Notes under the pieces: model-generated
What the model saw: only the letters and a program-made list of their open reading frames with translations
Told to the model about the DNA's origin: nothing
Database searches by the model: none
DNA from: a virus
Taxonomy: Duplodnaviria; Caudoviricetes
Direction: 5' to 3' (one strand)
Length of the DNA: 64,000 nt
Virus record (IMG/VR): IMGVR_UViG_2687453780_000005
Span: 32,001 to 96,000 of that record
Made by a program: the position numbers and the translations under genes
Part shown: piece after piece, positions 23,922-43,250 of the stretch
Numbering within the stretch: position 1 is the first letter of the stretch
Layout of the letters: every line of letters begins with the position of its first letter

Positions 23922-23951
23922 TTTACAAACATAAAGCAATGTGATATACTT
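23922..23951 (+). promoter_or_regulatory. Rightward sigmaA-like promoter divergent from the XRE gene
   Basis: TTTACA...TG-A-TATACT. Confidence 0.6.
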
Positions 23952-24001
23952 GTATCAAGTTAAGAGAAATAAGAGAAATAATGAAAGCGAGATAATCACC
24001 T

Positions 24002-24166
24002 ATGAAACATATTATCACATACTACAAAAACGAAAAGGCAGTTAAAACTTTAAATTATGAATGCAATCCAAACGCCACAAAATCTGAGATTAGCAGCAAA
24101 TGTCTTCAGTTTGCAAAACAGAATAAGCCAGCAAATTATGATTATTACGAGATAGCACAAGTCTAA
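24002..24166 (+). CDS. Small hypothetical protein
   Basis: 54 aa MKHIITYYKNEK...; first ORF after the promoter. Confidence 0.5.
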   Translation: MKHIITYYKNEKAVKTLNYECNPNATKSEISSKCLQFAKQNKPANYDYYEIAQV

Positions 24167-24314
24167 ACGACAAGCGTTCCGTCGGGTGCAATTCCTGACT
24201 AGGCTCTCAACAAGTGATGATACTTGTTTCCATCAGTGGCACATTGATAATTTAATAGACTTTACACTATCGCATATGATATAATAGGACTATATCAGAA
24301 AAGGATGTGATAGC

Positions 24315-24837: not shown

Positions 24838-25173
24838 TTATGAAGTCTATCAGGGCGAGCCTGTAGCGTCAAAGCAAATAGACGGTTTAACAAGTGGATG
24901 ATCACTTGCACCAAAATGGACGGAATAACCAAAAAGAGCCTGACTACTCGCAATAGTCAGACCCTTGGGGAACACACTTGAAAATGTGATCACGTTACTA
25001 GTTTCATATCATATCACATTTCTATGATTTATTCAAGTGTTAATTCCAAACGTGCAAACTGTACCTTGAAAAGTGAATAGAAATGTATTAGATCAATTAT
25101 TTTCATTTAATATATTCTGTTGGATTTACCATGAATGTGGTACAATGTTACTGAAATGACAGGAGGTGTTAAA

Positions 25174-25434
25174 ATGATAACATACTATAAATTACTTGAT
25201 ATGCTCAACCGACAAGGAATGACAAGGGAACAGCTTAAAAATGCCGCTGGTTTATCTTCGGCGACTATGACAAAAATATCTAAGCAAGAGTCGGTTACAC
25301 TAAAAACTATCGATTCTATTTGTAGAGTAATGAAATGTCAGCCAGGAGATATATTGCAGTACAATGATATGACCTATGATGATTATGCTATATTGCAAAA
25401 AGAAAAACAACTAAAAAATAGAGAAAATCTTTAG
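25174..25434 (+). CDS. Cro/C1-type HTH regulator
   Basis: ITYYKLLDML...GLSSATMTKI...LKTIDSICRVMKCQPGDIL. Confidence 0.85.
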   Translation: MITYYKLLDMLNRQGMTREQLKNAAGLSSATMTKISKQESVTLKTIDSICRVMKCQPGDILQYNDMTYDDYAILQKEKQLKNRENL

Positions 25435-25441
25435 AAAACAG

Positions 25442-25470
25442 TTGACATTGATTTGAAATCATGATATACT
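25442..25470 (+). promoter_or_regulatory. Strong sigmaA promoter
   Basis: TTGACA-17 bp-TATACT with extended TG. Confidence 0.8.
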
Positions 25471-25600
25471 TGTATTATCAAAAGGAAATAGAAAAGGCGG
25501 TCACAGACACCGACCAAAGTATCAGACCACCTTTTCACACAACTTGATATACAAGCGTATAATCATTCTAATACATTTTTATTCGCTTTTCAAGTGCAAT

Positions 25601-26521
25601 CGCACACAAATTTCCTTTAAGTAATATCTTTTCCAGTCGTGGAACTGGCCACAAAATGAACGGATCACGCAACAGAGACTGAAACGTCCACGGAGCTTGT
25701 GATGGACAGGCCGTAAGGCTATAGCGAACCCTGACAACGCACATATGTAATAACGGTTTTATCTGGAGCAATTGGAGTAGTGTAACCATGTTATAGGTGA
25801 ATCAATTAAGGAGAAAATACTTTTATCCGAAATTGTTACCTTGACAATAGTTGCATGAGGGCAAAGGGATATGAGGACAGATAAATAATTCCTGAAAAAT
25901 ATGAAACTGCGCAATAGGTGTACCCTAACTATACGGTTTCTACCCTAGCTAACTAGTGAATGATGTCACATGGGAGAAACAAGCAGACCTGTGAGAAGGT
26001 GGTCATTGACGGGAGCGAATAAAGCGAATAACCCCACAGAGGAATCATAAGGGAGCATACACCACTTAATTATATTACTTCCAGATAAAGAGACTGGACA
26101 AGCAGAGGACGGAACAACGAGCCTATGAAGCAGTAGGCAACCAAAGAGAACGGAAAGCAAAATCCTATTTGTTATAGGTAATTCAAATTAGTACGGAATA
26201 ACGCAATTAAGATTTATTTGTAGCCATTAAAACATCATTCAGGCATCACAATGACAAGCCCTGAAATATCGTTGATATGGCTATTTTGTTATAGGTTTTA
26301 TCAGTTACACCACGCACGTAAACTAGGCACTATATATCGGTTCTTGGATTGTATACTCCTCAATCCTTATTACTGATTGCGTGTAGTCAAATATATTCAG
26401 AACGTATGAAATCAAGTTGAATATTGGAAGCTCTTGACAACTACCCATCACGGGAGGCTCTGCTAGACAATCTTTCATTGATTGACTTTTCTTATTTTGA
26501 AATCATTGGCTTTTGTGTGCG
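25601..26521 (+). ncRNA. Large (about 900 nt) ornate structured RNA, ROOL/GOLLD-class candidate
   Basis: No credible ORF; closing helix 25601-10/26512-21; long-range helix 25758-68/26079-89; many hairpins including a GNRA loop; strong promoter upstream. Confidence 0.6.
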
Positions 26522-26554
26522 TTAGTATCTGATAAAAAACAGGAGGAAAAGGAA

Positions 26555-26782
26555 ATGGAATATTACAATAGCTTGGTTGATCGTATGGTAAGGGAAGCTA
26601 GAAGGTTATTGAGTAATAAGGGGTTAAGTTCAGAAAATGAGGTTATGACGATCTTAAAAGCGGCGCAGATTATTATTGTAACAAATGAAGTATTTGAAAC
26701 ATCTTTCTTTGATGAAAAAGACGATATCATAGACGATATTTCCATTCTATATAAAGAACGATTAAATGAAGCCTTTGTATAA
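26555..26782 (+). CDS. Hypothetical protein
   Basis: ATG 26555 after AAAGGA RBS. Confidence 0.6.
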   Translation: MEYYNSLVDRMVREARRLLSNKGLSSENEVMTILKAAQIIIVTNEVFETSFFDEKDDIIDDISILYKERLNEAFV

Positions 26783-26891
26783 AACAAAATTTAGTATCTA
26801 TTATGCAGATGATTATATGTATATTCTTACATTGTATCGCCTGTATAAGTACTTACTAAAGTGAGTAATATTGCAGAAAGGAAATAAACAT

Positions 26892-27788
26892 ATGAAGGAA
26901 AATGAATTATTAGAAAGCAAGGAATTACGGGAAAAATTAGTTGCTAAAGTGGAAATTTTGGATAAGGTCAAAAAGTTGCTCCTTATTCCTGGCACTGAAT
27001 TAGCAAATGCGCAGCAAGTAGCGGATTTTTACGAGGTAGAGAAGAATACCATTGAAGTCCTTTATTCACGTAACAAAGATGAACTGGACGAAGACGGAAC
27101 AGGACTTGTAAGTTATAAAGATTTTCTAAACTTACAAAATGTCAGTTTAGAGAAAAGCAGAGGTAAGACAACATTCACATTCCAAAGTGGTGAAATTCTT
27201 AATGTTCCAAACAGGGGATTAAAAGTTTTCCCTCGTCGTGCAATTCTCCGCATAGGAATGCTACTTAGAGATTCAGCCATAGCGAAGGAGATCCGCACTC
27301 AATTACTTAATATAGAAGAAAAGACTTCTAATGAAACAAAAACAATGGACATCACAGAGGAACAGACTCTTGCCTTATCCGTCGGCATGGCATACGCAAG
27401 TGGAAACCCTGATGCAATCATGATAGCTACCACTAAAATGATGGACTTTAAAAACCGTCACATAGCAAAACTGAACGAGTCAAACAATGCTCTGGCAAAC
27501 GGTATCCTAGCGTGGGACGATAGGGGACGAATTAATTTTGCAGTCCGTAAGATGGCAGCATACGCACATATCACAGTAGGTAAAGCCTGGAGCGAGTTGT
27601 ACAAGCAATTAAAGAACGGCTTTCATATTGATTTACAGAGCAGAGGAAAACAGCCATGGATACAACACGTAGATGAAAAAGAATGGCAATGCGTGATTAA
27701 AGCATTTTCTGCCTTATGCAAGTATTATGAATTGGAACCTAGCGACATGTTTCATGACTTAAAAATTGAAGAAGAGGTTAAAGCATAA
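26892..27788 (+). CDS. Phage antirepressor-like DNA-binding protein
   Basis: VADFYEV...FPRRAILRIGMLLRDSAIAKEIRTQLL. Confidence 0.75.
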   Translation: MKENELLESKELREKLVAKVEILDKVKKLLLIPGTELANAQQVADFYEVEKNTIEVLYSRNKDELDEDGTGLVSYKDFLNLQNVSLEKSRGKTTFTFQSGEILNVPNRGLKVFPRRAILRIGMLLRDSAIAKEIRTQLLNIEEKTSNETKTMDITEEQTLALSVGMAYASGNPDAIMIATTKMMDFKNRHIAKLNESNNALANGILAWDDRGRINFAVRKMAAYAHITVGKAWSELYKQLKNGFHIDLQSRGKQPWIQHVDEKEWQCVIKAFSALCKYYELEPSDMFHDLKIEEEVKA

Positions 27789-27865
27789 GCCGAGGATTTG
27801 TAACCGTAAAAAGTTGCAGATCCATTTTTAGTTAGGAAAGAATATCTAGGAAAGAAGGTGTAATT

Positions 27866-28114
27866 TTGAAAGTAAACATATACACAATAGGCAAGAAAAC
27901 GTTAATCGGAACTTACAATGTAAAATACGTTTATGATTCAAGTTTTTATTTTAGAGGTATGCCTACATTGTCAGCAAAAAGGTGTAGAGAAATACTAAAC
28001 ATCGTATCGCCAAATTTCAAAATCGAATCGGAAACTTTGGTTATTGAAAACGTAGAAACAGGACATACCGGAATACAAAAGATACACAGAGGCGGTACTA
28101 TTTTAAACTTTTAA
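27866..28114 (+). CDS. Hypothetical protein
   Basis: GAAGGTG RBS, TTG start. Confidence 0.55.
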   Translation: MKVNIYTIGKKTLIGTYNVKYVYDSSFYFRGMPTLSAKRCREILNIVSPNFKIESETLVIENVETGHTGIQKIHRGGTILNF

Positions 28115-37701: not shown

Positions 37702-37938
37702 GTGACTACAATGTCGTTTTATTTTCCGATGATATCAAGCGATATCGAGAGAAAAGAATATAAGCAGAGGGTAGATGAAAAACTAGAAGATCTTTATGAG
37801 GATCTAAAATGGTTGATACATTGGGAAGATACTTTTAATTCAGAGGTTAGTTTTTATAGAGATGAAAACATGGTATCTGATTATACATATTTAAAAAATG
37901 TAATTGATAAAATATTAAAAAGGAGAATAAAAAAATGA
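37702..37938 (+). CDS. Hypothetical protein
   Basis: ORF track; GAGGTG RBS near ATG 37711. Confidence 0.55.
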   Translation: MTTMSFYFPMISSDIERKEYKQRVDEKLEDLYEDLKWLIHWEDTFNSEVSFYRDENMVSDYTYLKNVIDKILKRRIKK

Positions 37939-42698: not shown

Positions 42699-43250
42699 GT
42701 GTCAACAGTAAAAGTGATTGGAAATAATGTGTGTTTATTAAATAATGATAGGGTGGTTCACAGCAGGAGCATAGCGGAAACTATATATTGCGGAGAGGTG
42801 AGATATGCATATCTTCCCAAAATGCCTACTGTTGAGGGATTAAAGTTCCACATTCAAGAGAAAGCAAGACCTGTTTTGATCGTATCAAACAACGCTAACA
42901 ATAGAGCCACCAACGGTAACGTCCAAGTTATTCCGTTTACATCAAAAGACAAGACCAGTTTGCCAACTCATTTATCATTCAAGGCAGGAGAATTTGGGCT
43001 TGCAGAAGATTCAATTTTGATGGCCGAGTGTGAGACGCAGATTCCAGCAATGTTTGTTTTTGAAAAAATCGGCGAAGTAAATGATAATAAAATTATTGAA
43101 GATATCGTCCAAACGATAATTATTCAGCATGGCTTGTTTGCAAAACTTATGAAAAAGAGATATAATAAGTCGAATGTGAACCGATCAGTGTCTGATTATA
43201 AGGTTATCGAAGGGAGAAAACATAATGACTTCGAAAGAAATATTGGATAA
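42699..43250 (+). CDS. MazF/PemK family endoribonuclease
   Basis: QEKARPVLIVSNNANN...VQVIPFTSK...LPTH...DSILMAE. Confidence 0.85.
   Translation: MSTVKVIGNNVCLLNNDRVVHSRSIAETIYCGEVRYAYLPKMPTVEGLKFHIQEKARPVLIVSNNANNRATNGNVQVIPFTSKDKTSLPTHLSFKAGEFGLAEDSILMAECETQIPAMFVFEKIGEVNDNKIIEDIVQTIIIQHGLFAKLMKKRYNKSNVNRSVSDYKVIEGRKHNDFERNIG

Follow-up and report, generated by a model that had tools for sequence, protein, structure and literature searches.

A mosaic of conserved RNA modules, probably an untranslated leader to the early gene array of a large Lachnospiraceae prophage

The window, by which we mean the whole 64,000-nt stretch of DNA analysed, derives from a prophage of the 120–135 kb size class whose host belongs to the Lachnospiraceae. 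Its genes include XRE, a RelE-type module, many small co-directional ORFs, methyltransferases, an integrase, DnaB and a Pol III alpha subunit. A plus-strand early promoter (25442..25470; TTGACA, 17 nt, TG-n-TATACT; in short form TTGACA-N17-TGATATACT) follows the end of the XRE gene after 8 nt. It scores 11/12 with its TG extension, is kept in every full-length homologue, and would place the transcription start near 25477. The promoter lies 130 nt upstream of 25601, where the original prediction had placed the start of the RNA. At the other end, a Shine-Dalgarno sequence (AGGAGG, 26542–47, plus strand) precedes the first early ORF, which begins with an ATG at 26555 on the plus strand and encodes 75 aa without a family match. 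The first downstream ORF varies among phages and offers no functional clue. The tract between promoter and ORF is gene-free, with small ORFs of 41–73 aa on both strands, and its GC content is 38–43% versus 29–35% in the flanks (the stretch as a whole has ~33% GC, the host genome 43%), as expected from the earlier description of an ORF-free, GC-richer region. No plus-strand terminator-like site was found between 25600 and 26560, hence none before the ORF at 26555. None of the small ORFs nearby was recognised as an RNA-binding candidate with Pfam or PHROGs. Farther along the early array, an ORF at 37935–38267 matches the Pfam family GP17, a superinfection exclusion protein (E = 4e-23).

Scans of genomes, metagenomes and IMG/VR recovered 12 further loci with homologous leaders or modules, mostly on contigs of Lachnospiraceae and soil phages of 120–135 kb. 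L013 is virtually identical over 24960–26520 (98–100% per 60-nt bin), and the metagenome contigs L021 and L023 show ~80% identity. Homologues also occur in Lachnospiraceae bacterium 54-53 (G016) and in Clostridium sp. HBUAS56010, which has two leader copies. L026, L192 and L193 carry a divergent leader type, L022 carries a partial copy, and L191 and L194 share 26295–26536 at 94% identity and nothing else. An IMG/VR contig of 135 kb is 89% identical over 24907–28112. BLAST against phage and plasmid GenBank collections returned no match to the tract, and the leader element occurs as a single copy in the 5.9-Mb genome.

Across the homologous leaders the order of parts is constant: promoter, a 5′ hairpin (T0), repeated hairpin units and a 3′ domain. 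Phages that share just 57–75% identity in the adjacent ORF are 92–100% identical over the non-coding stretch 26340–26520, and other leader segments have been swapped out or deleted between close relatives, which gives a mosaic pattern of identity. In tblastx comparisons with G016, stops interrupt all frames over the aligned blocks, so the conservation of the tract is not coding conservation.

Immediately downstream of the predicted transcription start is T0 (25491..25536, plus strand), a leader hairpin followed by a U-run that resembles an attenuator or a bidirectional terminator. T0 folds in 8/8 homologues tested, from five different stem sequences, and a U-run usually follows it; on the minus strand it has a terminator score at 25516–25498. 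A minus-strand promoter (25593–25565; TTGAAA-17-TAGAAT) points at T0, and the predicted countertranscript of ~70 nt would end there (promoter and transcript together span 25488..25593). The stretch with this antisense promoter is 100% conserved in window-type, G016 and L026 homologues, and 25567–25594 is a 28-nt inverted copy of 25065–25092, upstream of the XRE gene. The 25065–25092 copy drives the XRE gene, and the 25567–25594 copy faces antisense into the leader. The spacer of the duplicate contains the 9-mer AGCGAATAA, which recurs in tandem at 26014–26031 and may be an operator.

From its sequence, the 5′ end of the leader looks like a sense/antisense attenuator. It resembles the countertranscript attenuation systems of pT181, pIP501 and pAMbeta1 in having a short predicted antisense RNA over a terminator-like leader hairpin, whereas those systems control plasmid replication and the genes downstream here are phage early genes. 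The Rfam model ctRNA_pT181 gave a sub-threshold match (22 bits versus a cut-off of 56).

The leader also contains a repeated unit comprising a 5–7-bp hairpin, a 9–14-nt spacer and the motif ACGGA(A/U)NNNN, often ACGGAAUAAC, which we refer to as the hairpin-ACGGAAUNAC unit. The design occurs at four plus-strand sites in the leader and at one site upstream. Unit 1 (25633..25668) has the hairpin CCAGU-N6-ACUGG, 9 nt and GAACGGAUCAC; its hairpin reads ATCAG/CTGAT in L192, and its type is also present in L024. Unit 2 (26080..26118) consists of UCCAG-N9-CUGGA, 10 nt and ACGGAACAAC, and its stem (26080–98) changes from TCCAG/CTGGA in the window to TTTAG/CTAAA in POVV01 and TTCAG/CTGAA in L022. In unit 3 (26121..26159; GCCUA-N8-UAGGC, 11 nt, ACGGAAAGCA) the helix is 98% paired, with compensatory changes at 4/5 pairs across three phage groups. 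The hairpin of unit 4 (26164..26202; CCUAU-UUGUU-AUAGG, 14 nt, ACGGAAUAAC) is invariant and therefore gives no covariation signal. The fifth copy (24891..24929, plus strand; CAAGUGG-AUGA-UCACUUG, 11 nt, ACGGAAUAAC) is upstream of the leader, after the RelE-type module. A strong 15-bp hairpin with a minus-strand terminator score (24934–24966) directly follows this upstream unit.

The ACGGA sequence is ~5-fold enriched over shuffles in most homologues, and the ACGGAAUNAC motifs are spaced at ~41–45 bp. In an alignment of unit pairs from three phage groups, 90% of cells pair, compared with 76% in shuffles, and pairing falls to 13–43% when the partner columns are slid. The observed pairing or covariation was reached in 0/500 shuffles, a test inflated by relatedness; the homologues comprise only ~4–5 sequence types and covariation counts are correspondingly small.

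Units are also found apart from the rest of the leader. In L024, a 109-kb IMG/VR phage contig, two back-to-back units immediately follow a tRNA-Glu gene, and the gene downstream of them has no homology to the Ant-like gene of the window. In the regions 500–2800 and 5000–5361 of L024, tRNA arrays flank a 291-aa gene on both sides, whose short leader consists of two units, and a group I intron-like match there reaches 44 bits, below the cut-off of 50. A second phage group, on contigs of 29–47 kb, has several units per ~300-nt leader, where a long hairpin and a ribosome-binding site again close the array. Leaders of ~300 nt with three to four hairpin-ACGGAAUNAC units and a terminal hairpin occur in L180 (10004–10290), L155, L158, L163, L164, L182 and L183; in L180 a cold-shock-domain gene is encoded just upstream (Pfam CSD, E = 2e-20).

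In the genome that carries the window, a covariance model of the unit pair (R1) recovered the training site only, and under strict filters it gave no match in 150 further genera of the family. The unit thus appears to be rare, as opposed to absent, and phage-borne. Genome-wide regular-expression searches for a hairpin plus ACGGA were too permissive to be informative, and one loose pattern gave random matches. A CsrA sponge was considered and rejected: GGA has no overall enrichment and is depleted in L026.

Elsewhere in the window, a further exact ACGGAATAAC follows the hairpin GGCAA-N7-TTGTC on the minus strand at 42927–42964, antisense within the MazF/repressor gene region. Upstream of the leader, a second early-type promoter (23926–23955; TTTACA-17-TGATATACT) precedes a 54-aa ORF and has the same initial transcribed sequence as the G066 leaders (TTGTATCAAGTTAAG...). 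A 68-nt element at 24159–24226 is 96% identical in G016 and is conserved too in G011 and G066. By eye it looks like the 3′ half of a tRNA, with a T-arm-like UCGGG-UGCAAUU-CCUGA and then CUAGGCU, and the tRNA-like part is followed by a hairpin (ACAAGU-GAUGAU-ACUUGU) like those of the units. The element includes GUUCCGUC, which is complementary to GACGGAAC of unit 2.

Between units 1 and 2 are two small plus-strand hairpins and a variable region. P2 (25686–25707; GUCCA/UGGAC) shows an A-U, G.U, G-C series at two pairs. P3 (25709–25720; GGCC-GUAA-GGCU, of the form GGCC-GNRA-GGCU) was read by eye as CAUC/GGUG in L026. The G.U pairs in P2, unit 2 and other small helices fit the plus strand alone. 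In Ga0213826, POVV01 and G-type homologues, other sequence takes the place of the variable middle (25730..26075, plus strand) or the segment is missing, and no conserved fold could be defined in the middle third. An insert near 25920–26040 is restricted to the window type and contains stretches complementary to the leader (25990–26004, and the two AGCGAATAA copies at 26014–26031). After the units, an extra plus-strand hairpin (26220..26284; TAGCCAT/ATGGCTA enclosing TTCAGG/CCTGAA) is found in window-type leaders only; Ga0213826 retains it as CGGCTAT/ATGGCTG via C-G and G.U changes.

The covariation analysis called for in the original prediction yielded compensatory changes in local helices, within the few sequence types available. 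Among the internal helices that it had listed, P3, GGATTG/CAATCC and TAGCCAT/ATGGCTA with its inner TTCAGG/CCTGAA are all in the sequence, and the first three of these covary. The longer-range helix 25758–67/26080–89 can likewise be read from the window sequence, but relatives do not keep it, and its 3′ arm forms part of a local hairpin that is conserved. A second such helix, 25619–27/26072–80, is also window-specific and not kept in relatives. The broader proposal of a non-coding, structured plus-strand RNA region behind a strong promoter is borne out by the conserved promoter, the stopped frames and G.U covariation on the plus strand only.

The leader ends in what we term the 3′ clamp domain (26296..26537, plus strand). 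Its base comprises an outer helix (26296–26304/26529–26537), the short pairing 26306–08/26525–27 and an inner helix (26312–26321/26513–26522), inside which is a conserved rod of stems. Together these form ~22 bp of long-range duplex, the 3′ strand of which stops 5 nt before the Shine-Dalgarno sequence. The clamp base is kept with compensatory changes in 12/12 homologues having the domain (window, L026 and G types), and the local duplex energy in these ranges from -12.7 to -24.2 kcal/mol. The length of the domain varies from 149 to 243 nt and its interior is wholly different in window-type and G-type leaders. The domain is always directly before the ribosome-binding site, and is a self-contained module.

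Sequence comparison shows that the leader modules are conserved, covary on the plus strand and are independent of one another: the 3′ domain stands alone in L191 and L194, and the units stand alone in L024 and the second phage group. Given that no terminator precedes the ORF at 26555 and that the modules recombine independently, we interpret the tract as a modular cis leader and not as a single ornate RNA. With moderate confidence, we suggest that it is a ~1.08-kb untranslated leader (~25477–26554) to the plus-strand early gene array of the prophage, built as a chain of cis-acting modules.

A related but unlikely reading is that only the 3′ domain (26296–26537) is functional, as a ~240-nt stable small RNA cut at its basal duplex and acting in trans or binding polymerase, and that the rest is regulatory spacer. 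The domain is the most conserved part of the leader, the L191/L194 homology block starts and stops exactly at its base, and a ~22-bp basal duplex would suit RNase III. The sole transcript trace in RNA libraries is a 267-nt, depth-2 contig from a soil metatranscriptome that covers 26296–26538 of the Ga0213826 variant. The coincidence of its borders with those of the domain is suggestive at most: contigs cannot fix RNA ends, this one could be DNA carry-over, and the rest of the tract is uncovered by RNA-library contigs. Against a trans-acting product, the interior of the domain differs wholly between types, and its fixed place before the ribosome-binding site suggests action in cis. The reading also leaves the conserved units, P2/P3 and T0 unexplained.

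The original prediction had proposed one RNA of ~920 nt, perhaps a new class, closed end to end by a perfect 10-bp helix. Taken further, this would be a stand-alone large RNA, similar in kind to ROOL or GOLLD, that folds globally and acts in trans. Such a reading seems to us somewhat more doubtful still. The tract is indeed large, non-coding, densely paired and GC-richer than its surroundings, and it sits in a large prophage, the usual home of ROOL and GOLLD. The arms of the proposed helix, CGCACACAAA (25601–10) and TTTGTGTGCG (26512–21), are perfectly complementary, and in four window-type sequences the far duplex (-19.0 kcal/mol) is as stable as the local one (-14.5 to -18.0 kcal/mol). However, 7% of dinucleotide shuffles contain two perfectly complementary 10-mers separated by more than 700 nt, and the folding energy of 25601–26521 is unremarkable (z = -1.06 for the plus strand, -0.20 for the minus strand). 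The far duplex reaches only -7.8 to -11.1 kcal/mol in G016, G066 and L026, and the 5′ arm is absent in L191, L193 and L194. L191 and L194 retain an identical 3′ arm, with no CGCACACAAA within 1.1 kb upstream. From a raw MAFFT alignment, RNAalifold chose the end-to-end helix, yet 3/7 of its pairs are broken in the G066 copies. As the far helix is not conserved, and L191 and L194 have the domain without the 5′ arm, end-to-end closure is not a conserved feature of the leader; the local partner (26312–21/26513–22), which competes for the 3′ arm, covaries in every homologue with the domain. The complementarity of the arms therefore stands and the closure does not. The single ~920-nt RNA is likewise not sustained, since the modules occur separately, the middle differs by replacement or deletion among close relatives and no terminator stands ahead of the ORF.

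Comparison with known RNA families led to the same view. At gathering thresholds, cmscan of the whole window against Rfam 15 found one tRNA and nothing else. For 25300–26700, at E <= 10 and with lax filters, matches were noise only, with none to ROOL, GOLLD, OLE or group I and group II introns, which are rejected accordingly; these are the models against which the original prediction had asked that the tract be checked. The homologous leaders L012, L008 and L026 also had no Rfam family match. The suggested likeness of about 25866–25905 to ROOL thus finds no Rfam support in the window or in the homologues tested. ROOL is ~580 nt long and commonly lies beside phage tRNA genes. The leaders here are 760–1080 nt, and the nearest tRNA is ~11 kb off on the other strand, with no adjoining tRNA array in the window. 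Unlike ROOL and GOLLD, the tract has no global closure, is modular and runs on into mRNA. In place of a new ornate RNA class, it reads as a mosaic cis-leader whose modules have been recombined in other phages, albeit one without an Rfam family.

It is also improbable that the features act as DNA, for example as operator arrays, origin iterons, sites for recombination or packaging, or an insertion of the MITE type, with the folds being incidental. Short inverted repeats can look like protein-binding palindromes, the 9-mer TTATTCGCT/AGCGAATAA occurs four times around promoters, the ~41–45-bp spacing of the ACGGAAUNAC motifs could be that of DNA sites, and the ends of the 3′ domain are inverted and the whole block moves together. 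However, stem sequences vary between units and between orthologues with pairing kept; read from the opposite strand, the G.U pairs and the A-U/G.U/G-C series would turn into A.C mismatches. Position and orientation are constant relative to the promoter and ribosome-binding site, and the single genomic copy does not fit the multiple dispersed copies of a MITE-like element. Decayed coding sequence or a degenerate intron, to which the small ORFs on both strands might point, is very improbable given the stopped frames in the homologue, the unmatched intron models and a flanking ORF that is less conserved than the non-coding parts.

Under the modular cis-leader reading, the leader most likely acts on its own transcript and controls the early operon in cis, at the level of transcription, processing or translation. 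T0 and the antisense RNA, whose promoter is a copy of the XRE-gene promoter, might attenuate early transcription. Like nut sites, the repeated units might load a factor onto the RNA or onto polymerase during elongation. The basal duplex of the clamp, which is the kind of substrate recognised by RNase III, could serve for processing, probably by that enzyme, or as a gate on translation of the first gene.

The resemblance of the units to nut sites is one of design only. Like lambda nut (boxA plus boxB) or HK022 put, they present small 5-bp hairpins beside a conserved single-stranded motif, repeated in an early-operon leader, and their purine-rich loops (GAAGAU, GAUGAA, GAAGCG) can be likened to those of nut and put hairpins. 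In contrast to nut, ACGGAAUNAC is not boxA-like and the unit loops are 5–9 nt instead of 5. No N-like protein or gene was recognised among the window genes with Pfam and PHROGs. A more speculative proposal, to which we assign a low likelihood, is that the ACGGAAUNAC hairpin repeats are loading sites, and the clamp an effector or processing module released as a stable small RNA, of an undescribed RNA-based system of processive antitermination or maturation that would drive the long early operons of giant and some smaller Firmicute phages.

Long regulatory leaders have precedents in the operons of mobile elements. The conjugation operon of pLS20 has a 456-nt leader with a zipper-type attenuator and conAn processive antitermination (PMC13401043, PMC8191782). 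Both that leader and this tract are long, precede very long co-directional operons in mobile elements of Gram-positive bacteria, contain long-range complementarity and have a long imperfect stem-loop directly before the first gene (here the 3′ domain, 26296–26537). A zipper-type attenuator has an intrinsic terminator immediately past its long stem, with one arm complementary to a weak stem-loop upstream. No such terminator follows the long stem here, and the sole hairpin of terminator type lies at the 5′ end, facing an antisense promoter. A conAn1-like gene was not identified here.

Lambdoid prophages provide a second precedent. In the dicBF operon of prophage Qin, DicF is released from the leader by RNase III and RNase E. 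Leaders of this type share with the tract a long non-coding stretch from the early promoter to the first early gene and swappable, separately conserved folded modules, which here are probably processed as well. The tract differs in having no sequence or Rfam relation to them, a Firmicute host and a phage of 120–135 kb, and its modules, such as the hairpin-ACGGAAUNAC unit and the clamp domain at the 3′ end, are of another kind. By its organisation, then, the tract appears to belong to a kind of element already known, the mosaic prophage early leader.

These results remove a false lead, in that they separate the tract from ROOL-like nanocage RNAs. Two of its modules, the hairpin-ACGGAAUNAC unit and the clamp domain at the 3′ end, have no Rfam entry and are phage RNA motifs that had not been described. 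Lambdoid prophages and Gram-positive conjugative plasmids are known to have long structured early leaders; for large prophages of the Clostridia we found no report of one. Both motifs recur in uncultivated phages from soil and other sources, and they provide handles on the timing and protection of early gene arrays that probably serve anti-defence and host takeover.
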